DNA from: Candidatus Hermodarchaeota archaeon
GTDB taxonomy: Archaea; Asgardarchaeota; Hermodarchaeia; Hermodarchaeales; Hermodarchaeaceae
DNA: 24,000 bases
Direction of reading: 5' to 3'
Assembly: GCA_016839365.1 (NCBI GenBank)
Contig: JAEOUH010000039.1
Span: 4,136-28,135, forward strand
Shown: positions 2,410-23,198 of the stretch, in pieces
How positions within the stretch are numbered: position 1 is the first letter of the stretch
Layout of the letters: each line of letters opens with the position of its first letter
Notes under the pieces: generated by a model
Seen by the model: only the letters and a program-made list of their open reading frames with translations
Told to the model about the DNA's origin: nothing
The model's database searches: none
Translations under genes and position numbers: made by a program

Positions 2410-3789
2410 TTATGAAGCAGCAGATTTGAGTACATCTTCAATCCAATCAAGCCCTAGTGTAAGGAGTTCCTGAGCTCGTTTTTCCTGACGCGATTCCGCA
2501 AAGCACCGAAAGACCGGTTCTGTACCGGATGGACGGAGAAGCAACCAGCCATCATCGAAAATGACTTTGACTCCATCTGCGGTATTGACTTGTACATTGG
2601 GATAATCTTTTCTCACCATTTCTAGAGCATACAAGGTAACAGCTTCTTTGAGATTATTAGGGCAATCAATTGCGCGTTTTAATTGGGTGTACTTGGGGAA
2701 TGCATCAATAATCTCACTTAGCGTCTTTTCGGTACGTGCCAAATACTCCAACAAATAAGCGGTACCAAGACCACTATCCGAAAGGTAGTTGAGACGAGGG
2801 TAGATTATTTTACCAGATTCTTCAAAAGCAAACAGTGCGTTGTGCTTTTTGATGGCAGCCACTATCGCTGGTGGTCCAACGCGGCTATACACGATGCGCG
2901 CTTTAAATTGCCCAACGACATCTTCAACTAGGTTACTAGAATTGATTGGTGTGACGATGGTGCCTCCCCCCTCACGGATTAGCTCAATCTGAGCCAGCAG
3001 GGTGCCTGAAACATCACCCATGATTGCCCGTCCTTTATCGTCGACAAAGAACGCACGGTCAGCATCACCATCAACAGCGACACCCAGATCTGCCCTTTGT
3101 TGTTTTACCAACTGAACCGCTTGATCCAAGAGGTTAACTCGTAAATTAGGAGATCGACCAGGAAACGTAGGATCCCGTTCGGTGTTAAGCTCGATAACTG
3201 TACAACCCAGTTGTTTGATGGCATCTAGCAGCCAGGGGATAGCTGTGCCATTTGCAGCATCAACAACTACACGAAAATTTCGTTTGGCAATAAGACCTGC
3301 ATCCACTTGTGTTACGACCTTGTTTATCCAAAAGGAACCTACATCAGAAGCTTGTCGGAGGCGTCCATAATTCTGCCAATTCACAGGTGCGGCTTTTGAA
3401 ATATTGAGCGCTTCGATTTGTTTTTCAACATCACGTGGGACTGGGGCACCATCATGGTCGAGTACTTCAATCCCAGACATATGAGCGGGGATATGGCTGC
3501 CAGTGATTAAGATTGCCCCTCCCAAATCGCAATGGCGGGGATACAAGCTTACAGCTGGTGTGATGACTTCGCCTCCATAATGAGCGTCAGAGCCTCCTGC
3601 CATTAATCCACTAACGACAGCGTTTGTCAGCATTGGGCTGCTTGTACGGTTATCGTGGCATACTAAAAGAGGTGCACCCTTGAAAACCGTGGCGACACTA
3701 TAGCCGATTTGCCAAGCAACCTCTGGATGCAGTTCATCGGGGACAGAGCCACGAATACCACTAGTGCCAAAGCAGGGCGTCCATGTCAT
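2410..3789 (-). CDS. Phosphohexomutase-family protein, paralog 2, with a divergent catalytic loop
   Basis: The gene is full length and collinear with the other two paralogs (FGTSGIRG, DGDADR, EESG, RPSGTEP). The phosphoserine loop reads ITGSHIPAHMSGIEV instead of T-A/G-S-H-N-P-P-E-Y-N-G. A GAGGT SD lies upstream of the ATG. It is 27 nt upstream of paralog 1 on the same strand, so the two are probably an operon. Confidence 0.8.
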   Translation of the reverse strand: MTWTPCFGTSGIRGSVPDELHPEVAWQIGYSVATVFKGAPLLVCHDNRTSSPMLTNAVVSGLMAGGSDAHYGGEVITPAVSLYPRHCDLGGAILITGSHIPAHMSGIEVLDHDGAPVPRDVEKQIEALNISKAAPVNWQNYGRLRQASDVGSFWINKVVTQVDAGLIAKRNFRVVVDAANGTAIPWLLDAIKQLGCTVIELNTERDPTFPGRSPNLRVNLLDQAVQLVKQQRADLGVAVDGDADRAFFVDDKGRAIMGDVSGTLLAQIELIREGGGTIVTPINSSNLVEDVVGQFKARIVYSRVGPPAIVAAIKKHNALFAFEESGKIIYPRLNYLSDSGLGTAYLLEYLARTEKTLSEIIDAFPKYTQLKRAIDCPNNLKEAVTLYALEMVRKDYPNVQVNTADGVKVIFDDGWLLLRPSGTEPVFRCFAESRQEKRAQELLTLGLDWIEDVLKSAAS

Positions 3790-4710: not shown

Positions 4711-6090
4711 TTGACCCGATTGTTTGGGACGCAAGGGTTCCGAGGCATTGTCAATAGAGAACTCACGGCATCAGTGGCATATGATGTGGGCCGTGCATTA
4801 GCTGATTATCTTGAAGGACCGAAGACCATTGGTCTAGGATGGGATTCCCGCCAATCCAGTGAAATGCTTGGATTTGCCTTTAGTGCGGGCTTGATGACTG
4901 GAGGTTGTAACGTTCATATTCTGGGTCTGGTTCCCACGCCTCTGTTATCTTATGCTATTCCTCAACTCAAATTGGATGGGGGAGTAATGATTACAGCAAG
5001 TCATAACCCACCGGAATACAATGGCATTAAATTGTGGGGTCCAGATGGCGCATCTTTTACAATGGAAATGGGACGGGCAGTTGAGGACTGTTATTTTGTT
5101 GAAGACAGACCTTTACCTGAATGGCAGGCTTGTGGGCGTCTCGTTCCCTCTGAGGATTTCAGGTTGCAGTATATCGAAGCCCTGCTCGAGCAGGTTAATG
5201 GACAACGTCTCATGAAACGACAGTTCCAAGTTGCTGCTGATTGTGGTGGAGGCGCCGCGGCTATGGTTGTTCCGGCCCTGTTGAATGCAATAGAGGTACG
5301 GACCAAGCTTCTTTACTGCGAACCTGATGGTCTCTTTTCTAACCGGTTACCAGAACCTAAAGAGGCTAATCTCCAAAAATTAATTCAGACCGTTAAAAAG
5401 AATGAACTCGATGTAGGGATGGCCTGGGATGGTGACGCCGATCGAATTATCCTAATCACAAATCAAGGGCGATACCTTATGGGTGATCGTGTCTTCGCAC
5501 TCGCAGCATATCATTCGCTTCGAGACCTCCAAGAGAAGCCAAAGCGTATCGTTACACAAGTGGCGACCAGCGATGTCATCCACGAAGTTGCGCTCCTTGT
5601 TGATGCAGAGATAATCGAAACGCGGGTCGGTGAACCCTTCATAGTCCAGGCAATGAAATCTAAGAATGCGGTGATTGGTGGTGAAGAAAATGGGGGAGTT
5701 ATCTACCGCGGATGGTCTTGGACCCGAGAAGGGATGCTTACGGCATTGAAGATTCTTGAACTCATGGAATTAGAAGACAAATCTCTAGAAGAGCTAGATA
5801 GCCAATTTTCCACCTATCATCAGGTTAAAGAGAGTGTTCACTGCGACCTTCAAGAGAAGGATACACTCCTTGAGCTCATTAAAGAATATGCTCCCTCTGA
5901 GGTTGAGTGCAGCACCATCGATGGAATCAAAGTTCGATACTCTGATGGGTGGGTTCTTCTCCGCCCCTCTGGAACCGAACCCATCTTTCGCGTCTTTGCA
6001 GAGGCAAAAACTGAAACCCGAGCAAAAACATTAGTCAATCAAGGGCTCCAAATCGTATCTGATGCTCTTGGAGATATGAAAACAAATTAA
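4711..6090 (+). CDS. Phosphohexomutase (PGM/PMM/GlmM family), paralog 3
   Basis: It has ITASHNPPEYNGIKL, DGDADR, GGEENGG and RPSGTEP. The start is TTG at 4711, preceded by GGAG at 4701-4704 with a 6-nt spacer. Confidence 0.85.
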   Translation: MTRLFGTQGFRGIVNRELTASVAYDVGRALADYLEGPKTIGLGWDSRQSSEMLGFAFSAGLMTGGCNVHILGLVPTPLLSYAIPQLKLDGGVMITASHNPPEYNGIKLWGPDGASFTMEMGRAVEDCYFVEDRPLPEWQACGRLVPSEDFRLQYIEALLEQVNGQRLMKRQFQVAADCGGGAAAMVVPALLNAIEVRTKLLYCEPDGLFSNRLPEPKEANLQKLIQTVKKNELDVGMAWDGDADRIILITNQGRYLMGDRVFALAAYHSLRDLQEKPKRIVTQVATSDVIHEVALLVDAEIIETRVGEPFIVQAMKSKNAVIGGEENGGVIYRGWSWTREGMLTALKILELMELEDKSLEELDSQFSTYHQVKESVHCDLQEKDTLLELIKEYAPSEVECSTIDGIKVRYSDGWVLLRPSGTEPIFRVFAEAKTETRAKTLVNQGLQIVSDALGDMKTN

Positions 6091-6107: not shown

Positions 6108-6530
6108 TTGCGTTTGTTGATTTTTCATGGGAATATAGCCTACAAGCCTACTGAAGCAGTAAGGATCAGTATTCGTGATGAAGCCAAGGAGGATACCTGG
6201 CAAGAATTCGAAAACTGCTTAACTGTTTTTTGTGCCGTAGAAGCTTCTGATGAAGGGCGGTTATCCGAAATTGTGCAAAAGGCGACAGAAGAAATTCAGT
6301 TGGTGGCTAACAGAGTCAAGGTTGGGAACATTGTGTTATATCCACATGCACACATCTTTCCCCGGAAACTCGCCAAACCCAAGTTCGCTGTTAGGATATT
6401 GCAGAATTTACTGAAGGCCTTAGAAGATCAAGGCTTCGTGGTGCACCAAAGCCCATTCGGTTGGTACAAAGCCTTTAAGCTCGAATGCTATGGCCACCCC
6501 CTAGCTGAAAGCGGAAGAAGTATAGATTAG
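6108..6530 (+). CDS. Free-standing archaeal ThrRS-type editing domain (tRNA-Thr-ED / DTD-like fold) protein
   Basis: The 140-aa protein is collinear with the N-terminal editing domain of archaeal ThrRS as I recall it (MRLL..H.....E; VLYPHAHI versus V/LYPFAHLS; PFGWYKAFKLECYGHPLAES versus [22 protein letters not shown]). The start is TTG, with a GGTGA SD 6 nt upstream. It begins 17 nt after mutase paralog 3. Confidence 0.7.
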   Translation: MRLLIFHGNIAYKPTEAVRISIRDEAKEDTWQEFENCLTVFCAVEASDEGRLSEIVQKATEEIQLVANRVKVGNIVLYPHAHIFPRKLAKPKFAVRILQNLLKALEDQGFVVHQSPFGWYKAFKLECYGHPLAESGRSID

Positions 6531-12349: not shown

Positions 12350-13729
12350 TTGAGTGCTTGGTCTATACTTACTGCTGTGCGTGAAAATCCCGAAATACTT
12401 CGAAGGTCTCAACGGCGTAGAGGGCTGGATCCTACCGTTGTTGATGAAGCCATCCAACTAGATGAAGCTTGGAGAAAAACGCGATCTGACCTTGCAGAGT
12501 TCCAACGCCAGCGAAATGAAGTGGCAAAAGAAATTGGGAAAACTAAAGACAAAACTAAACGAGAAGCCCTTATCAAAAAATCTAAACAACTCTCAAAGAA
12601 AGTCGAGGCAGGAGAGAAACAACTTGCTGATCTTGAGAAACAGCGGATGGACATGCTCTGGGGCATTGCCAACATTGTACATGATTCTGTTCCGGATGGC
12701 ATGGATGAAACCGCAGCGAAACCTATGAAATATGTTGGTAAGCCACGGGTTTGGACCAATCATGTAGACCAATTCCTTGCAGCGGCCCAGGGCTTAAAGA
12801 CTGAATACCAAGTTCTTGAAGATGTACCAAAAAGCCACTATGTTATCTCAGAGGAAATTGGTTTAATCGATACGACTCGTGCAGCCAAGGTTGCGGGATC
12901 TCGGTTCTACTATCTCATTGATGATATCGTCTGGCTCGATCTTGGATTGGCACTCTACGCTCTTGATAACATTACAAAACAGGGATTTACTCCCCTCATT
13001 CCCCCACATTTACTCAACCATGCAGCTTACAGCGGAGTCACAGATATCACTGCCTTTGAGGACTCATTATACAAGCTCGAAGATCAGGACCTCTATCTCA
13101 TTGCTACCTCCGAACACCCGATTGCCGCCCAGTATATGAACGAAGTTCTCGAAATCGACGAACTCCCCCTCAAATTCGCCGGCTATAGCCCATGCTACCG
13201 GAAAGAAGCTGGAGCTCACGGGAAGGACACGAAAGGAATATTCCGCGTCCACCAGTTCTCCAAGGTCGAAATGTTCGTGTTTTGTCTCCCTGACGATTCC
13301 TGGGATTGGATTGAAAAGATGATTGCCATCGAAGAGGAAATCTGGACACCGCTAGGCATACCCTTTCGTATCGTGATTTTACCTAGTGGAGACTTCAGCC
13401 GGGTAGCCTCGAAAACCTATGATTTGGAACTCTGGATGCCTTCTCAAGGGCGATATCGAGAATTTGTATCCTGCAGCAACTGTACTGATTACCAAGCATA
13501 TCGTCTCAACACCCGCTTCGCTGAAGCGCGTGGACACCCAACAAAGGGGTTCGTACACACCTTGAACTCAACTGTGATTGCGACCACCCGATCCATAACC
13601 GCTGTGTTGGAGAACAACCTCCAACCAGACGGACGCATTCTGATCCCGAAACCCCTTCAAGCCTATCTTAAGCCCATTGAAGCCGCTCCAGACAAATACA
13701 TCACACCAGCCCATATGAAAAGCAAATAA
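12350..13729 (+). CDS. serS: Seryl-tRNA synthetase
   Basis: The N-terminal coiled-coil arm is followed by class II motifs (GSRFYYL; YSPCYRKEAGAHGKDTKGIFRVHQFSKVE; CSNCTDYQAYRLNTRF; TLNSTVIA). The TTG at 12350 is preferred because GAGGAG sits at 12338-12343 with a 6-nt spacer and the N-terminus then aligns with the usual M......REN.PE. The ORF-track alternative is GTG 12329. Confidence 0.9.
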   Translation: MSAWSILTAVRENPEILRRSQRRRGLDPTVVDEAIQLDEAWRKTRSDLAEFQRQRNEVAKEIGKTKDKTKREALIKKSKQLSKKVEAGEKQLADLEKQRMDMLWGIANIVHDSVPDGMDETAAKPMKYVGKPRVWTNHVDQFLAAAQGLKTEYQVLEDVPKSHYVISEEIGLIDTTRAAKVAGSRFYYLIDDIVWLDLGLALYALDNITKQGFTPLIPPHLLNHAAYSGVTDITAFEDSLYKLEDQDLYLIATSEHPIAAQYMNEVLEIDELPLKFAGYSPCYRKEAGAHGKDTKGIFRVHQFSKVEMFVFCLPDDSWDWIEKMIAIEEEIWTPLGIPFRIVILPSGDFSRVASKTYDLELWMPSQGRYREFVSCSNCTDYQAYRLNTRFAEARGHPTKGFVHTLNSTVIATTRSITAVLENNLQPDGRILIPKPLQAYLKPIEAAPDKYITPAHMKSK

Positions 13730-13895
13730 GCCAGCTAGTGGCATGATGTTTACCTTAAATTGGCATATCCGTTAGGATTAATGACCACTAAATATTAGAG
13801 GTAAACTCTGCATTCCCAGAAAACAATTATTAACACATAGAAGTATGTAGTTCTGTCCGTTGGGGTTGGTGACCTGCGTGCCTAGAGAATTAGTG

Positions 13896-14723
13896 ATGCT
13901 CCGCATTGTTGACACCGGTGAAACAGTTCAAATCACCGATGCAGCTCCAGCGAAGACCCACTTGAAAGACGATGAAGTCCTCATTGTCATCGACGATGAG
14001 GAACGGCTAATTTGGATATGGAAAGGTAATGATGCCCCTGTCCGAAGAAAGTTCATTGCAGCCCGTCGTGCATCTGGCATCCGAGACCAGCGAGGTCTTG
14101 TTTATAAGATTCTATCTGAGGACCAAGGTCAAGAGGGAGCGAAATTCCTGGAGTGTATGGGATTACCACTCTCAACCAAGCCTGATGAGGCCATGAAAGC
14201 ACCACCTTCCGCCCCACCCATGCCGAGGCAAGCCACGGAGCCGGTAGCTGAACCACCAAAACCAACTCCAATCCAAGGAACGAAACCTGCGGACTATCGA
14301 GAAGCTGTGGTGACAGCGACTAGAACACCAGACCGTCAGACAGTACAGGTTCCGCATGTGCCATCTGAAATTATTGAACAGGTTGAAAAACTTGAACCAG
14401 TTCCAGGTTTTCGCCGAGAATTCGTGTTGATTGGGTTCGATGCCTTTGGCATCACCGAAGAAATTACCAGTGTCTTAGGTAAAACAACGAAAACACGAAA
14501 ATTACAGCGTATTGATTCGTTACCTGAAGGTACTGTCTTCGCCCAAGGATATACCCCACGGGTAGTGATTAAGGATGGACAAGTCTTGGCTATCGAATTC
14601 CTCAAACATCTAGAGGAAGAAGAATACGTGCACGAAAAAGAAGCTGTTAAGGAAGAGATGGCACGACAGATTACTGAACTAATTGAAGCATCTCGAAGTG
14701 AAAAGAGCCGTCAAAAATCATAG
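13896..14723 (+). CDS. Gelsolin/villin-repeat domain protein with a Pro-rich linker and an unknown C-terminal domain ('1DGelX'-like architecture)
   Basis: The N-terminal ~90 aa follow the gelsolin-repeat pattern: L.DDEVLIVIDDEERLIWIWKGNDAPVRRKFIAARRASGIRDQRG...ILSEDQGQEGAKFLECMGL (compare sDvFiLD.g..iyvWvGk.as..Ek.kA...A..i........v.eg.E...F...lG). A Pro-rich segment follows (APPSAPPMPRQATEPVAEPPKPTP), then an unassigned ~90-aa domain and a charged helix. The start is uncertain (ATG 13896 or TTG 13860). Confidence 0.6.
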   Translation: MLRIVDTGETVQITDAAPAKTHLKDDEVLIVIDDEERLIWIWKGNDAPVRRKFIAARRASGIRDQRGLVYKILSEDQGQEGAKFLECMGLPLSTKPDEAMKAPPSAPPMPRQATEPVAEPPKPTPIQGTKPADYREAVVTATRTPDRQTVQVPHVPSEIIEQVEKLEPVPGFRREFVLIGFDAFGITEEITSVLGKTTKTRKLQRIDSLPEGTVFAQGYTPRVVIKDGQVLAIEFLKHLEEEEYVHEKEAVKEEMARQITELIEASRSEKSRQKS

Positions 14724-14740
14724 GATTACGAGGGGATAAA

Positions 14741-15136
14741 ATGCAACAGTTTGCGATGAGCGAAGAAGAAGCCAAACAACTAGCAATGTATCTGCGCGAA
14801 ATCACGTTGTATACAGAACTTGAAACACTGGCAGTGGTCACAAAAGCGGGTCGACGGGTAGCATTCAGCTCAACGAAGGGTGTTAACATTGATCCAGATT
14901 TATTATCAGCGATTTCTGCGGTCTTGCTACAGACAGGTATCGAAGCGGTGGAGAAACTAGCTTTCGAACCATTGTTTGAACTCATCGTTCGCGGGGAAAA
15001 GGGTATTATTGTGGTCACAGACGCTGGACCTTTAGTGCTCATTGGGGCAGGAGTCAAGATTGAATCATTGGGACATGTCGTATCTGTGTTCCGACACTTT
15101 GGGCGCGAAATCGCCTCGTTATTTTCCAAAAAGTGA
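14741..15136 (+). CDS. Roadblock/LC7 (MglB-like) domain protein
   Basis: The 131-aa protein shows the Roadblock pattern: ...LETLAVVTKAGRRVAFSS.....DPDLLSAISAVLLQTGIEAVEKL.....ELIVRGEKGIIVVTDAGP.LVLIG. It begins 17 nt downstream of the gelsolin-domain gene on the same strand. Confidence 0.7.
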   Translation: MQQFAMSEEEAKQLAMYLREITLYTELETLAVVTKAGRRVAFSSTKGVNIDPDLLSAISAVLLQTGIEAVEKLAFEPLFELIVRGEKGIIVVTDAGPLVLIGAGVKIESLGHVVSVFRHFGREIASLFSKK

Positions 15137-15139
15137 GCC

Positions 15140-15145
15140 TTTTTT
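15140..15145 (+). terminator. Oligo-T tract, possible terminator after the gelsolin-Roadblock pair
   Basis: A T6 run starts 4 nt after the Roadblock stop codon (15134-15136). Confidence 0.25.
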
Positions 15146-17238: not shown

Positions 17239-17448
17239 GTGTATTCGATGTCAAAACCAAGTGACCAAATGAGTGCCTATTTTCAAAAGAAGGGTGAAAA
17301 CCTCGAAGAGCTAGCGGATCACCATGCAGCGATTGGTGAAGTACCCCAGGCCAAAGAGCTCTATGCTCAAGCTCGTTCGATGTTTGAACGATTAGGCAAT
17401 GAGGAACTAATTTCTCGCATTGACGGAAAAGTAGGGAAGCTCAAGTAG
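17239..17448 (+). CDS. Small hypothetical protein (single TPR-like helical hairpin?)
   Basis: This is a 66-69 aa ORF in an otherwise unassigned gap. It has a helical, TPR-like stretch (AAIGEVPQAKELYAQARSMFERLGNEE). There is no other support. Confidence 0.25.
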   Translation: MYSMSKPSDQMSAYFQKKGENLEELADHHAAIGEVPQAKELYAQARSMFERLGNEELISRIDGKVGKLK

Positions 17449-17482: not shown

Positions 17483-18631
17483 TTAGAAGATGGTAATAAA
17501 CCGGGTTGCAGGCTCACTGCGAAGTCGTACAGCAACATGGTCATTATTAAGCTGGAGAAAATGCCGTTCATGTTCTGTTAGCTTTTGATCAAGGGGGGAA
17601 AGGACTGCATCGAGGCCATTTGTGAGAATGAAGTTACCAACCTGATTGACCATTGGATTTGATTGATTGACCTTCGTTTCAAAAAAGACCAAGGGACTCT
17701 GTAAAGCCGCATAACGAGTACAGAGCCAATAAGCCAGCTTGGGGGAGAGCTCAGGTGGATTAACTAGGAAGAGGGGAGGAAGAGAATTTTCCTCGCGTGA
17801 AATAAGCTTCATGAGCAGTAGGTTCATTGCAAAAACGCTAGTTGGTGTATCAGTAACCGAGATTATTGTTGGAAGATGCGTGATATGAGACAAGGCGACA
17901 TTGTCATAATTTGGTTTGAGTAGGTCATGGGGGAGGGCATCAATTAAGCGGCGTATTTCAAAATAAGAAGCACCATGATGGTGATAAAATGATAGAGTAT
18001 TTTGGAGGTACTCAATTGACGGTTGAGCAGCCGACAGAAGTATTTTCCAGATAATTACGTGAAGAAGATTCCGAGCTGTAGGAGAGAGAGGATAGAACTC
18101 TTCAAAGAGTCTTATAAGGATGCTAATCTGCTGCGAGGGATGCAGTCCACCGCCTAAGTTCAAGGCGTTGAAGGTGATTTCATCCTTTTCTAAGTCTAGA
18201 TGCCACAGGGGACCTTCACAGACTTGTTGTTCGAGACCCTCTGAGGGCGCCCCTTTGATGACAATGACTGGGATGCGGTGATCGTCATGAAGTTGTATGA
18301 GCAGATTGAAGTAGATGTCTTGAGCCCTGGGACCGACAACGAAGAGGTTGATGAGGTCTTGAAGTGTCAATGAAAAGGGGTGAGTTTGATGGTTCTGTAT
18401 TAGGTATCCGATTTGAATCAACCCGGTCGTGTGGTGCGATTCGAAGTTAAAATGCGAACTTTCATCCGACAAGCCGTTTCCCCACATTCCATGCGGGTTC
18501 CGCCTCTTTTTTAGGTATTCGTGATAGTCTGTTTTAATAGACAGACATACTGCAGAGAGGTCACTGAAAGTAATCGCTGACCTTACTCCACTATGCCGTT
18601 TCCTATTTAAGCGATAAGCGGTAATGCTCAT
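17483..18631 (-). CDS. Hypothetical protein; possible HerA/DUF87-like P-loop NTPase fold with eroded Walker motifs
   Basis: The 382-aa ORF has a layout resembling HerA/DUF87 ATPases (IGYLI....HPFSLTLQDLINLFVVG-PRAQDIY-FNLLIQL...RIPVIVI). At the expected Walker A position, GPRAQDIY replaces GxxGxGK[ST]. At the expected Walker B position, PLFLVNPPE replaces hhhhDE. This is inference from pattern only. Confidence 0.45.
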   Translation of the reverse strand: MSITAYRLNRKRHSGVRSAITFSDLSAVCLSIKTDYHEYLKKRRNPHGMWGNGLSDESSHFNFESHHTTGLIQIGYLIQNHQTHPFSLTLQDLINLFVVGPRAQDIYFNLLIQLHDDHRIPVIVIKGAPSEGLEQQVCEGPLWHLDLEKDEITFNALNLGGGLHPSQQISILIRLFEEFYPLSPTARNLLHVIIWKILLSAAQPSIEYLQNTLSFYHHHGASYFEIRRLIDALPHDLLKPNYDNVALSHITHLPTIISVTDTPTSVFAMNLLLMKLISREENSLPPLFLVNPPELSPKLAYWLCTRYAALQSPLVFFETKVNQSNPMVNQVGNFILTNGLDAVLSPLDQKLTEHERHFLQLNNDHVAVRLRSEPATRFITIF

Positions 18632-20377: not shown

Positions 20378-21889
20378 ATGTGGTTTCCAAGAAACGGAAG
20401 GCTCATGTCCCAGCCAGCGGTGGATCCAAAAAACAGTGGTTTCTGTCCCTCCTGCCATATCAATATGGCAGAACGTTACTGCAAAGAATGTGGACAAGTC
20501 TTTTGTCTCCCTTGTTCACGTCAGGATAACAGCGAATTCTACACCTGTGCCCGCTGCGGACCGGACACCATCGAAGAACGGGAAGAGGGTGAATGGGTTT
20601 GCACCGAATGTGATGGACCCGCTCAGTTGGCGACCCGCCGAGTCCATCTTTGCCCAAATTGTGGCTCCGAGGGAATCGTCCCAATTCACAATATGCGACA
20701 AGAACTGGTTGGCCGCTATCGGACGACTTACTACAGGCTTAGAACAGGTCATGAACTGCTATCAGGATTTGCTGCCCGGTTGCGGATTTTACGATGGCGA
20801 ATCCGAGAATTACGAACAGCGAGTTTTCTGCATGACCCAGATGTGGAAAAGGAACTCCTTGATCTGATTAAATCTGACTTGTCTAGCGTCCAAGAACGTA
20901 TTCTCTTTCGTGCACGGAGTGTAGTCGAACGGCATCGAGCAAGCAAGATTCGCTTTTTGCACCCAGAACGTTGGACCATCACAGACTTTCCCTTGCTGGC
21001 TGGTCTAATCGAAGCGATCCAAGAAGACGTGGCAGACTACCAGGCCTATTGTCGTGATCTTGTCGGTGAGCTAGACGTAAAACTTGCTACCATCGAGGCC
21101 CGGCTAACCAAGATTGCCGAATGGCACAAACTCTTCGATGACCACATCGAATATCTTCCACTTATTGAGAATGAACGACCCGTTGCTGCTATTCATCCTG
21201 TGAGCCTGAACAAAACCGACACGAATGAAAGGATGGGTAACGGAATCTTATTCATCACCAGCAAGCGTTTGATCTTTCTGGGGCGGAAAGGGTTCTTTAC
21301 CAAAGAAACTAGGGTCATCCGTTCATTAGCCCTTGCGGAAATCACCGATGTTGAGCTTGAAGGACGGATTCGCAAACGGCTACGAGTCGCAATTGAAAAT
21401 GATGAGTTGAAACTTGGTGGCCCCTCAAGAGTATTGGAAGACATCCCGGATGCCATTAATTTAGCAACAAGCTTCTCGGAGCACAGCCTGGTCACTACCT
21501 CGGGTTCTCTGCGTATTCTAAATTTAAAGGTCGATGTGACTTCTCTGCGGGATGAATTGGATCAACTCATTAATTACGCAATTTCTCCTGAGGACGGAGA
21601 CCTATCTCGCCAACCTGAGGGGTCTCGCCCTTATCCATATCCCGATGGGTATTATCCTCGGTTTTCTTCACGATCTGATGGGTTAGAGCGAGATCCTGTC
21701 TTCCAGCTAGAGCAACAGCGGTTTAGCATCGAATCCACTATGGAGTTGCTCAAGAAGCAGTTCGAGGAAGGAAAGCTGTCTGATGAGAAATTCTTCAAAC
21801 AGTACCGTTCCCTAACTCAAGAACTGTATCTTGTGGAAGCCCGGATACGAGACACACAATCTCGTAAGGGTTTCGAAGACAAACGATAA
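20378..21889 (+). CDS. Multi-zinc-ribbon protein with a helical middle region, a PH/GRAM-like (bPH-type) domain and a SHOCT-like C-terminal helix pair
   Basis: Six CxxC pairs are present (C23/26, C35/38, C43/46, C57/60, C75/78, C92/95; nt 20444-20662). The PH/GRAM-like signature is NGILFITSKRLIFLGRKGFF..ETRVIRSLALAEITDVELEG....RLRVAIENDELKL (about nt 21170-21472). A Pro/Tyr-rich stretch (SRPYPYPDGYYPRF) follows. The C-terminus is a SHOCT-like MELLKKQFEEGKLSDEKFFKQYRSL (about nt 21719-21835). An alternative start is ATG 20405. Confidence 0.6.
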   Translation: MWFPRNGRLMSQPAVDPKNSGFCPSCHINMAERYCKECGQVFCLPCSRQDNSEFYTCARCGPDTIEEREEGEWVCTECDGPAQLATRRVHLCPNCGSEGIVPIHNMRQELVGRYRTTYYRLRTGHELLSGFAARLRILRWRIRELRTASFLHDPDVEKELLDLIKSDLSSVQERILFRARSVVERHRASKIRFLHPERWTITDFPLLAGLIEAIQEDVADYQAYCRDLVGELDVKLATIEARLTKIAEWHKLFDDHIEYLPLIENERPVAAIHPVSLNKTDTNERMGNGILFITSKRLIFLGRKGFFTKETRVIRSLALAEITDVELEGRIRKRLRVAIENDELKLGGPSRVLEDIPDAINLATSFSEHSLVTTSGSLRILNLKVDVTSLRDELDQLINYAISPEDGDLSRQPEGSRPYPYPDGYYPRFSSRSDGLERDPVFQLEQQRFSIESTMELLKKQFEEGKLSDEKFFKQYRSLTQELYLVEARIRDTQSRKGFEDKR

Positions 21890-21919
21890 ATCAAGCTAAC
21901 ATTTGAAGGCGTACGTAAG

Positions 21920-22552
21920 TTATTCTTTAACTTCCTTTTTCAGGCGTTCAAGTTCTCGCTTTGTTCGCTCGCGTCGTTCCTCTGAGGTTTCGAGGAGCTC
22001 TTCTTCGCCTTCAGGCACAGAAGGTAGTTGACCTGCTTCTTCGAGGGCGATCATGGTTTCGATGTCCTCAAGTTCGGCATCAACCTCAGCGTCCATTTCT
22101 TCGTCCTCAAGGCCGAGTCCCAGGATTTCTTCGGTGGCTTCAGCTTCCTCAATGAGGGCTTGTGTTTCAAGAATAACTTCACGTGCGACCTCTGGTGAAG
22201 CTGTCTCTCGTAGGTTCTCCAGTTCAGCACCGATGCCTTTGAGGGCACTGATAACTTCAGTTTCTCCACGAGCTTGATCGATGGCTTCAACGCCACGTTC
22301 CATCAAATCGATTTCTTGCTCAATCAGACGGGCTTTGCGCAGATAGCGTTGACGTCTACGAAGCTGTAACTTCGCCGCCTTTCGATCACCCCGACGAACA
22401 TAACGGATAGCTTTAATCCTCGAGTCCTTGGCCTTCGTTTCATATTGACGACCACGGACTTCAAGTTTGTCTGTTACCCGATGAATCCGGGCAATCGTGT
22501 CTTCTTTAGGTTCAGGTTTTTTCGGAAAGAGTTTTTCCCAGAATTTAGCCAT
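21920..22552 (-). CDS. ESCRT-III family protein, Snf7/CHMP4-Vps20-like class
   Basis: The N-terminus is hydrophobic and amphipathic (MAKFWEKLFPKK). The basic helical hairpin is ...RGDRKAAKLQLRRRQRYLRKARLIEQEI..., followed by ALKGIGAELENL and a very acidic tail. A proline motif QLPSVPEGEE resembles the MIM2 class. It lies 4 nt downstream of the other ESCRT-III gene. Confidence 0.8.
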   Translation of the reverse strand: MAKFWEKLFPKKPEPKEDTIARIHRVTDKLEVRGRQYETKAKDSRIKAIRYVRRGDRKAAKLQLRRRQRYLRKARLIEQEIDLMERGVEAIDQARGETEVISALKGIGAELENLRETASPEVAREVILETQALIEEAEATEEILGLGLEDEEMDAEVDAELEDIETMIALEEAGQLPSVPEGEEELLETSEERRERTKRELERLKKEVKE

Positions 22553-22556
22553 TTGT

Positions 22557-23198
22557 CTAGCCCTCCTCCTTTAATCGTTCAATTTCTTTTTCTAATTCAG
22601 AGACGCGCTTTTCGGGTTCGGGGAGTGAGGTACCTGTTTCTACTTCGATTTCTGAATCGAGCTCCCGAAGTGCGTCTTTCACTTCGCCATCAGTGACCTC
22701 GGTGGAAACGGCCATCCGGTCCATTCCCGCTTCGGCGACTTCTTGGGTCATTTCGAAGTGACGAAGGTTGCCTTCGATCTGATCAACAAGTTGTGCAACC
22801 TCAGGAACCTTAACCTGGTTCTTCAGTCCGCCAAGGGCAGAGTTGAGCTGGCCTAGGATTTTAGCCACTTCACCCATGGCTTCACTTTGGCGTAGTTGGG
22901 TTTGTAATCCTTCAATACGGAGACGATAGGCATCTACGCTCAGAGCCCATTTTTGGAATCGCAGATGATGTTGAAGGTACATCCGCGTGGCATCCATATT
23001 ACCCGATAACCGGTACTTTTTGGCCCGTTCACGGCTTTTACTCGCTTCTTTTTCGAGCATCTTCCGTTGTAAATCGAGCTTCCGGCAGAAGACATCAAGA
23101 CGGAAGATGAGCTTCTTCAGATCGGGTCCACCGCCCAGCCAATTCATAAATCGGCGAATAGCAGACATTGTCATTAACCTACCACTGACACCCTTCAA
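22557..23198 (-). CDS. ESCRT-III family protein, CHMP1/2/3 (Vps2/24/46)-like class
   Basis: SGNMDATRMYLQHHLRFQKW parallels GQMDAVRIMAKDLVRTRR of CHMP2 as recalled. Further matches are AMGEVAKILGQLNSALGGLKNQVKVPEVAQLVDQIE and an acidic linker. The C-terminal helix SELEKEIERLKEEG is MIM1-like. The likely true start is ATG 23168 (MSAIRRFMNWLGG) rather than TTG 23198. Confidence 0.8.
   Translation of the reverse strand: MKGVSGRLMTMSAIRRFMNWLGGGPDLKKLIFRLDVFCRKLDLQRKMLEKEASKSRERAKKYRLSGNMDATRMYLQHHLRFQKWALSVDAYRLRIEGLQTQLRQSEAMGEVAKILGQLNSALGGLKNQVKVPEVAQLVDQIEGNLRHFEMTQEVAEAGMDRMAVSTEVTDGEVKDALRELDSEIEVETGTSLPEPEKRVSELEKEIERLKEEG

Follow-up and report, generated by a model that had tools for sequence, protein, structure and literature searches.

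Asgard archaeal proteins that combine a single gelsolin domain with a C-terminal region X (1DGelX) are the closest described counterparts of GelX. GelX is encoded by the first of two adjoining genes (GelX and a Roadblock/LC7-family gene) in a 24,000-nucleotide stretch of DNA from a Candidatus Hermodarchaeota archaeon (contig JAEOUH010000039.1), which is referred to below, at its full length, as the window. The Thor 1DGelX protein binds rabbit actin with a Kd of 7.7 uM, and it nucleates, caps and severs filaments without Ca2+ dependence (Akil et al., PNAS 2020; PMC7444086). The recombinant protein was active on actin when assayed without Roadblock (PMC7444086), and 1DGelX is the most potent severing protein so far found in Asgard archaea. 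Thor 1DGelX, which was published as ~35% identical to ProGel, severs filaments robustly, whereas ProGel (the gelsolin domain alone) does not, and the C-terminal extension therefore adds function (PMC7444086). In human cells, GFP-1DGelX was found in regions resembling the endoplasmic reticulum and the nuclear envelope and was only weakly associated with filaments; the protein was not crystallised, and its domain X was modelled as a coiled coil (I-TASSER) and proposed to bind the sides of filaments (PMC7444086). No function has been assigned to domain X, and 1DGelX has been characterised on its own.

Because GelX fits this characterised class, the gelsolin-X type of protein is not in itself new. 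What appears to be new is a near-obligate, reciprocal and ancient pairing of the GelX gene with a Roadblock/LC7 gene, and our results point to GelX and Roadblock as an undescribed two-protein module that controls the archaeal actin skeleton. We found no report of a GelX–Roadblock gene pair in the literature; the Asgard Roadblock proteins have been treated by Tran et al. (2024), where gelsolin is not mentioned.

Conservation of the GelX–Roadblock gene pair

The two genes of the pair are located in the window as follows.

13860-14723, + strand: GelX gene (1DGelX-type), maximal open reading frame (ORF) of 287 amino acids (aa) from TTG 13860
14741-15136, + strand: Roadblock/LC7-family gene of the GelX-linked subfamily, 131 aa (identified by Pfam PF03259 and by profile matches to the PDB)

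The conservation of this pair was assessed in both directions. In the forward test, one genome per GTDB species was scanned with an alignment of domain X, by which 154 loci were confirmed and 80 of these examined; duplicates were removed, and the count was restricted to loci that could accommodate a gene downstream. A Roadblock gene of the same subfamily is present directly downstream of GelX, on the same strand, in all of the close loci (17/17) and in 51 of the 59 distant loci (~30% identity), which correspond to about 5 independent contexts rather than to 59 independent observations because most of them share one clade. In 3 of the 8 distant exceptions, Roadblock is next to GelX but inverted. 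In the reciprocal test, metagenome contigs were scanned with Roadblock sequences, and 72 of the resulting 80 loci had enough upstream sequence; GelX was located directly upstream on the same strand in 69 of these, was adjacent in another arrangement in 2, and was not adjacent in 1. Hence, this Roadblock subfamily exists essentially only beside GelX. A preliminary description of the window, made from the sequence alone, had staked its proposed functional link between the two genes on their joint conservation in relatives, and this conservation proved to be strong in both directions. Inverted arrangements were recorded in L030, L045 and L046, loci of one subclade in which Roadblock adjoins GelX on the opposite strand in convergent orientation.

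The other neighbours of the pair in the window (viz. a prenyltransferase, SerRS, an HD hydrolase, AspRS and two ORFs) persist in the majority of the close loci and in 0 of the 59 distant loci. At least 5 flanking contexts have been identified that share only the GelX–Roadblock pair.

Hermod-type context: SerRS, then the pair, then HD and AspRS
Loki-type context: NAD(P)HX epimerase/dehydratase (YjeF) upstream, Pro-rich vWA protein downstream
Sifarchaeum context: POR and MetE upstream
Odin context: LeuRS and a CBS-domain gene upstream, Macro and LysRS downstream
Context of the ProGel-like protein P0058 (Thor-like): ABC transporter upstream, aminotransferase downstream, 18-nt spacer

Candidate transcription signals are located around and between the two genes of the window, beyond the stop of SerRS at 13729.

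13730-13877, + strand: intergenic, candidate promoter region upstream of GelX (148 nt, 60% A+T)
13789-13797, + strand: TATA-like AT run TAAATATTA
13825-13833, + strand: TATA-like AT run AATTATTAA
14724-14740, + strand: GelX–Roadblock spacer gattacGAGGGGAtaaa (17 nt, free of T-tracts and too short for a promoter)
14730-14736, + strand: GAGGGGA Shine-Dalgarno-like motif in the spacer
15140-15145, + strand: T6 tract, candidate archaeal terminator, 4 nt past the Roadblock stop

The T6 tract is the only + strand run of at least 5 T between 12313 and 15653, and it is a candidate terminator because oligo-T terminators are in general use in archaea. A similar distribution is seen in the 31 loci with spacers of 60 nt or less, in which a run of at least 5 T is present in the spacer of 1 locus and within 60 nt after Roadblock in 19. 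These signals make it likely that GelX and Roadblock are co-transcribed in the lineage of the window.

Domain structure of GelX and its Roadblock neighbour

The likely start of GelX is GTG 13878 (281 aa), which yields MPRELV, the N-terminus of the close homologues in an alignment of GelX proteins; a GGTGA Shine-Dalgarno-like motif (13868-13872) is located 5 nt before it, and ATG 13896 is an alternative start in the same frame. All of the positions given in the preliminary description agree with the sequence. The close homologues of GelX (n=33) are in every case from an Asgard genome and are in every case annotated as hypothetical. The protein is made up of four parts, viz. a gelsolin-fold domain, a disordered Pro-rich linker, domain X and a charged C-terminal helix.

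13896-14168, + strand: gelsolin-fold domain, residues 13-103 (PDB phmmer matches, AlphaFold2, Foldseek)
14169-14351, + strand: disordered linker, residues 104-164 (AlphaFold2 pLDDT below 50 over residues 114-164)
14352-14609, + strand: domain X, residues ~165-250, ~86 aa (AlphaFold2 model, conservation)
14640-14714, + strand: charged C-terminal helix, residues 261-285 (AlphaFold2)

The first ~90 residues had been read as a gelsolin repeat, and this is borne out by sequence as well as by predicted fold. In phmmer searches of the PDB, the GelX N-terminus matches Loki 2DGel (7whg_G, 1.1e-6), Thor ProGel (7c2f_B, 4.7e-6) and villin (9jus, 9.8e-5), and the AlphaFold2 model (34 sequences) has a pLDDT of 86-96 over residues 11-103. 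In Foldseek this domain superposes on Thor ProGel (7c2f_B; E 7e-7, TM 0.89, rmsd 1.6 Å), followed by human gelsolin G3/G2/G1, adseverin, CapG and villin at E 1e-5 to 1e-4; dozens of the matching domains come from eukaryotic gelsolin, adseverin, CapG, fragmin and villin. D45, W54 and G56, which are invariant in the 34 sequences, form the "DWG" core motif (Asp hydrogen-bonded to Trp, then Gly) described in the 1DGelX preprint. PF00626 itself gave no match: no Pfam family, PF00626 included, is found in the 287-aa GelX at E<=1, and precomputed Pfam domains number 0 in all 33 homologues. The gelsolin call therefore rests on the PDB sequence matches and on the fold. The missing PF00626 match is a sensitivity limit of the Pfam model for Asgard gelsolins and not evidence against the fold.

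The type II Ca2+ site of gelsolins is built from a strand Asp and a Glu with which the long helix begins. At the start of this helix, R62-R63 of GelX are located opposite D-E of the Ca-regulated Loki 2DGel in the phmmer sequence alignment, and R62 is invariant among the aligned GelX homologues. Because R-R replaces D-E, the alignment suggests that the type II site has been lost in GelX, which agrees with the Ca-independence of the published 1DGelX.

The assignment of GelX to the 1DGelX class is well supported, the match being one of architecture (gelsolin domain, linker and X) and published description rather than to the assayed Thor sequence itself. The preliminary description had noted a resemblance to the same class, and the architecture does equal that of the published class. 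Its comparison with Thorarchaeota stands for the architecture and not for the source, since the nearest genomes, whose X regions are 86-97% identical to that of the window, are Hermodarchaeota-type and not Thorarchaeota proper. One member of the X family (P0058) carries the same X domain as the window and is 35.7% identical to Thor ProGel, which agrees with the value published for Thor 1DGelX and lends indirect support to a homology with its domain X. The named members of the family (viz. Hermod, Loki, Sif, Odin, Thor-labelled, Hod-labelled, Borr and Ran) are all Asgard, and all of them are annotated as hypothetical. Makarova et al. (2019; PMC6393860) described a highly divergent villin/gelsolin-like cluster (cls.008013, Lokiarch_14920) with an HHpred match to 3FG7, one of three clusters that were present in 7-8 of 8 Asgard genomes and had no earlier arCOG assignment. 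This cluster may be the GelX family, as an unconfirmed candidate; 3fg7_A is among the Foldseek matches to GelX.

Domain X, which the preliminary description had left as an unassigned domain of ~90 aa, is a real and strongly conserved domain for which we have identified no known relative. It is the best-conserved part of GelX, above the gelsolin domain, and it contains the conserved motifs PGxxRE, LGK, LPEG, YxPR and AxEFLK. AlphaFold2 prediction of residues 150-287 from 57 diverse sequences (pLDDT 86, pTM 0.64) yields one short helix and then five long beta-strands, followed by the long C-terminal helix. A Foldseek search of the PDB with the domain X model gave a best E of 0.43 and TM of at most 0.23, a domain X profile gave nothing significant against PDB sequences (best 0.007), and the whole of GelX gave no significant match in Pfam or NCBIfam. 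Domain X is thus a confidently predicted beta-rich domain without a fold match, and not a coiled coil, and as a model it appears to be new. Domain X was also considered as a second gelsolin repeat that has degenerated and as a cryptic Roadblock/longin/profilin-like domain, and both identities have been rejected: hhalign gives probabilities of 0.1% against Gel and 0.8% against Roadblock, and Foldseek gives no PDB match to domain X.

An exhaustive HMMER search with the X region of the window produced 86 representative clusters, nearly all of which have the Gel-X architecture. A gelsolin domain is detectable in 83 of 115 X-containing proteins and most of the others are contig-end fragments, so that X occurs essentially only in this architecture. 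Three variants have been observed, viz. a Gel-X-X protein of 480 aa (P0113), a 430-aa protein in which Gel-X is followed by a coiled coil of ~230 residues (P0111), and a 444-aa protein with an N-terminal X followed by ~350 uncharacterised residues with Cys-rich motifs (P0085).

The charged helix that had been noted after domain X is likewise recovered by AlphaFold2, at residues 261-285. Of the 127 paired homologues, 123 have a tail of more than 25 aa. A subclade comprising Lokiarchaeum ossiferum and Harpocratesius lacks the tail, although the Roadblock partner is still present there; in Lokiarchaeum ossiferum, Harpocratesius and L026, the GelX proteins that are paired with Roadblock stop 2-4 residues past X. 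As a candidate for a universal Roadblock docking site, the C-terminal helix is weakened by its absence from these pairs, and because this tail-less subclade keeps Roadblock, the helix is not the sole docking site.

The downstream gene had been identified in the preliminary description as a Roadblock/LC7 gene, and Pfam PF03259 recognises it with 23.7 bits against a gathering cutoff of 23, over 81 of the 91 profile positions; its orthologues score 25.9 bits (L041) and 21.2 bits (L167). A profile of the subfamily matches Roadblock/LC7 structures in the PDB (9jue_D, 8.1e-10 over 119 residues; 7f8m_A, 3.8e-8). Between clades the Roadblock proteins are 42-49% identical, as against ~30% for GelX. In some sources the label "predicted regulator of Ras-like GTPase activity" is attached to its close homologues. 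We know of no Roadblock protein that partners a gelsolin-family actin regulator.

Probable partner binding by domain X and the alternative explanations

Divergence within the pair has been compared for the different parts of GelX. Over 127 distinct pairs, the pairwise divergence of Roadblock is correlated (Spearman) with that of X at 0.87 and with that of the gelsolin domain at 0.71, and the corresponding partial correlations are 0.90 for Roadblock with X given the gelsolin domain and 0.11 for Roadblock with the gelsolin domain given X, all of these values being affected by saturation and by the non-independence of the pairs. As a control, an unrelated upstream enzyme in 43 loci showed no preference for X (0.41 vs 0.52), and with this control removed as a proxy of phylogeny the correlations in the 43 loci are 0.69 for Roadblock with X, 0.40 for Roadblock with the gelsolin domain, and 0.50 for X with the gelsolin domain. 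This evidence, although soft, points to domain X, and not the gelsolin domain, as the part of GelX with which Roadblock co-evolves, a result that appears to be new.

On balance, we consider it probable that Roadblock is a dedicated partner which binds the X region and thereby controls GelX. Under such a mechanism, the single gelsolin domain of GelX would bind actin and, by analogy with the Thor protein, would sever, cap and nucleate filaments without control by Ca. Roadblock would be a specialised protein, occurring essentially only as the neighbour of GelX, and it would bind the non-gelsolin part of GelX, i.e. domain X and possibly the C-terminal tail. Domain X would then serve as a docking or regulatory module, instead of or besides binding the sides of actin filaments. 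Roadblock proteins generally act as dimers, and a dimer could join two gelsolin domains into a functional "two-domain" gelsolin; alternatively, Roadblock could tether GelX at a particular site and gate its severing activity there. Gene order that is kept across deep lineages is reportedly a strong predictor of physical interaction (Dandekar et al., 1998).

A number of observations weigh against this account. Most of the distant loci come from a single Loki-type clade, in which a different synteny is conserved around the pair. GelX is found without an adjacent Roadblock in Borrarchaeota, Ranarchaeia and "Asgardarchaeia" and as second paralogues in two metagenome-assembled genomes, and GelX–Roadblock fusions number 0 among ~115 X-containing proteins and 160 loci. 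Roadblock is not needed for basal activity, because the recombinant Thor 1DGelX is active alone. The distance correlations constitute soft evidence of the mirror-tree type. Column covariation (APC-corrected mutual information, 127 pairs) is underpowered at an Neff of 39 and is dominated by high-entropy columns of the tail and linker, and the only usable signal in it is that 18 of the top 100 pairs come from X and 2 from the gelsolin domain. The spacers of 41 Loki-type loci measure 96-260 nt and are 83% A+T, and 39 of them contain runs of at least 5 T, so that separate transcription of GelX and Roadblock is plausible in Loki-type genomes, although such T-runs are expected by chance because these genomes are AT-rich. 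Because of these long spacers with T-tracts, the module is not defined by co-transcription; the single transcript envisaged in the preliminary description fits the signals in the window (viz. the 17-nt spacer, its Shine-Dalgarno-like motif and the T6 tract after Roadblock) and is not universal.

The GelX copies that were recorded without an adjacent Roadblock (L025, L066, L071, L078, L168 and L169) do not form a single paralogue clade; the metagenome-assembled genomes with such a second copy have a paired copy as well.

Of the alternative explanations, two survive about equally well. The first, which the preliminary description favoured, is that the pair is coupled to GTPase signalling, with Roadblock acting as an MglB- or Ragulator-like GTPase-activating protein, guanine nucleotide exchange factor or platform, and GelX being the effector or the recruited protein. 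The Roadblock neighbour is a genuine member of the Roadblock/LC7 family whose homologues are annotated as predicted regulators of Ras-like GTPase activity, small GTPases and Roadblock proteins are plentiful in Asgard genomes, and a Ras-family gene is located within 4 kb of GelX in five loci (L029, L032, L048, L052 and L078). However, the 24-kb window contains 0 genes for a GTPase, actin or profilin, and in the genomic context of 80 genome and 80 metagenome loci no conserved GTPase neighbour of the pair was found: Ras-like genes are near 5 of the 80 genome loci and 1 of the 80 metagenome loci, and are thus not conserved with the pair. The GTPases of MK-D1 are generally not in operons with Roadblock genes, and gene layout does not predict their partners (Tran et al., 2024). 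Further, Roadblock proteins also have roles that are independent of GTPases (e.g. dynein LC7). We therefore regard GTPase coupling as possible and rather unlikely, and it is also compatible with the binding of Roadblock to domain X, as Roadblock could bind both X and a GTPase. Ras-domain proteins were seen near GelX at two of these loci: at L032:12-1790 a Ras-family GTPase domain is joined to an M20 peptidase (592 aa), and the protein at L078:5402-7633 (- strand, 743 aa) has its Ras domain in the centre.

The second alternative follows the proposal of Akil et al. (2020) that domain X binds the sides of actin filaments and positions the gelsolin domain; Roadblock would then be co-regulated with GelX without binding to it. 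In keeping with this, 1DGelX severs robustly and ProGel alone does not, X is conserved more strongly than the rest of the protein and contains invariant charged surface motifs, and recombinant 1DGelX works without Roadblock. On the other hand, X resembles no known actin-binding fold, and co-regulation alone leaves both the reciprocal adjacency and the X-specific co-variation of rates without explanation. GFP-1DGelX is also only weakly present on filaments and is concentrated at regions resembling the endoplasmic reticulum and nuclear envelope, a distribution that a platform role fits at least as well as side-binding. In view of these points, filament side-binding with mere co-regulation of Roadblock seems to us as doubtful as GTPase coupling.

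A third alternative, also raised in the preliminary description, concerns the linker, which in the manner of formins or Ena/VASP would bring profilin or profilin-actin to GelX. The linker of the window is 21% proline, and polyproline binding has been reported for Thor and Heimdall profilins, and not for Loki and Odin profilins. A close relative (L009) has a run of 6 prolines in its linker. However, a conserved run of about 5 or more prolines, as would constitute a profilin-binding tract, was found neither in the window nor across the 127 paired homologues: the longest run is 2 in the window and is at most 3 in 126 of the 127 homologues (no proline in 4, a longest run of 1 in 65, of 2 in 46, of 3 in 11 and of 6 in 1). 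Proline fraction (median 0.095, range 0-0.34) and linker length (0-105 residues) vary widely, the linker is the least conserved segment of GelX, and the GelX–Roadblock pair is kept in Loki and Odin, whose profilins reportedly do not bind polyproline. The recruitment of profilin by the linker is thus improbable. The conserved elements of the linker are of a different kind. The window clade has a DYxxVVxxAxR motif at residues ~145-155 (14290-14325), in which D145, Y146, V150 and A153 are near-invariant and a short helix is predicted at residues 147-154, and the Loki-type linkers have a conserved N(T/V)GP(L/I)YTG; these motifs could be linear binding motifs.

In 42 Loki-type loci, a 724-aa protein (L050:5107-7281) is encoded on the same strand downstream of Roadblock, at a median of ~0.7 kb past the GelX stop. 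It consists of an N-terminal domain, a long stretch with polyproline (PPPPK, PPPPPS) and a C-terminal vWA domain. In this clade the module may be a three-gene unit that includes the Pro-rich vWA protein, and the polyproline of the latter is a better candidate for profilin binding than the GelX linker.

Lastly, passive synteny of the two genes without a specific functional link, which would accord with the equal retention of other neighbours within clades (e.g. YjeF upstream in 53 Loki-type loci), is highly improbable given that across clades the other neighbours are kept in 0 of 59 loci while the pair is kept in at least 5 contexts, that the reciprocal search found the genes adjacent in 71 of 72 loci, and that they stay adjacent even where Roadblock is inverted.

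The binding of Roadblock to the X region can be extended to a broader proposal, viz. that GelX and Roadblock represent an ancestral Asgard complex in which X docks a Roadblock dimer onto a severing gelsolin domain and thus couples actin turnover to a Roadblock platform. We put this forward as a speculation that is unlikely to hold in full. If true, it would mean that the studies of 1DGelX to date have lacked an obligate regulatory subunit of the protein, that the complex contains a Roadblock platform of the kind which eukaryotes later used for the attachment of dynein cargo and for Rag/Ragulator and MglA-type GTPase signalling at membranes, and that it is a prokaryotic precursor of the coupling between the cytoskeleton and membrane trafficking. 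Should a complex of GelX and Roadblock exist, gelsolin and Roadblock would be seen paired for the first time in any organism, and the complex would be a candidate link from Asgard actin dynamics to platforms of the Roadblock type; should it not exist, an explanation would still be needed for the pair, which is among the most conserved gene pairs specific to Asgard archaea. The conservation of the pair, the co-evolution with X and the new predicted fold together make domain X directly testable.

Other genes in the window and comparison with described systems

Several other genes in the window are of interest. An ESCRT cluster is located at 20378-23198, and some of the remaining genes are grouped near the start of the window.

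20378-21889, + strand: 503-aa protein with weak Vps23_core and bacterial-PH matches
21920-22552, - strand: Snf7/ESCRT-III gene
22557-23198, - strand: Snf7/ESCRT-III gene
18-986: nucleotidyltransferase with hexapeptide repeats, beside the phosphomutase paralogues
979-2382, - strand: phosphoglucomutase/phosphomannomutase paralogue
2410-3789, - strand: phosphoglucomutase/phosphomannomutase paralogue
4711-6090, + strand: phosphoglucomutase/phosphomannomutase paralogue
6108-6530: stand-alone archaeal threonyl-tRNA synthetase editing domain, 140 aa (PF08915, 3.5e-39)
17239-17448, + strand: 69-aa ORF, synteny kept in the window clade (66-aa relatives)
17483-18631, - strand: 382-aa ORF with no Pfam match, synteny kept in the window clade (relatives of ~325-332 aa)

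In one relative, the syntenic block is likewise followed by this Vps23-like gene, and the ESCRT cluster confirms that the window is of Asgard origin. The three phosphomutase paralogues lie within 5 kb.

In comparison with described systems, GelX shares with 1DGelX one gelsolin domain, a linker and a C-terminal X without known homologue, as well as the restriction to Asgard archaea and a gelsolin domain homologous to Thor ProGel (7C2F). It differs in that the X of the published protein was taken as a coiled coil, whereas AlphaFold2 predicts here a five-stranded beta-domain and one long helix; in that Akil et al. mention no Roadblock neighbour; and in its source, a Hermod-type genome as opposed to Thor SMTZ1-83. 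With eukaryotic gelsolin, villin, CapG and adseverin and with Asgard ProGel and 2DGel, GelX shares the gelsolin fold and the DWG core. GelX has one repeat in place of 2-6, and a non-gelsolin C-terminal domain; it is also below the detection of PF00626 and has R-R where the Ca-regulated 2DGel has D-E.

The Roadblock protein of the window belongs by sequence to the Roadblock/LC7/MglB family (viz. dynein LC7, MglB, LAMTOR2-5 and the Asgard RB proteins), and it resembles the Asgard "RB" type (Tran et al., 2024) in its size of 131 aa and its C-terminal helix. Unlike other Roadblock proteins, those of this subfamily are found almost only beside GelX and have no associated GTPase gene. Roadblock/LC7 dimers are docking platforms for segments of their partners (viz. 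dynein intermediate chain, LAMTOR1 and MglA). Domain X has no homology to the partner segments of dynein intermediate chain or LAMTOR1, and its likeness to them would be one of function: in the dynein intermediate chain with its LC7 dimer, and in LAMTOR1 around its Roadblock dimers, the dimer docks a partner and dimerises or anchors it, which offers a functional analogy for the manner in which a Roadblock dimer may act on GelX.

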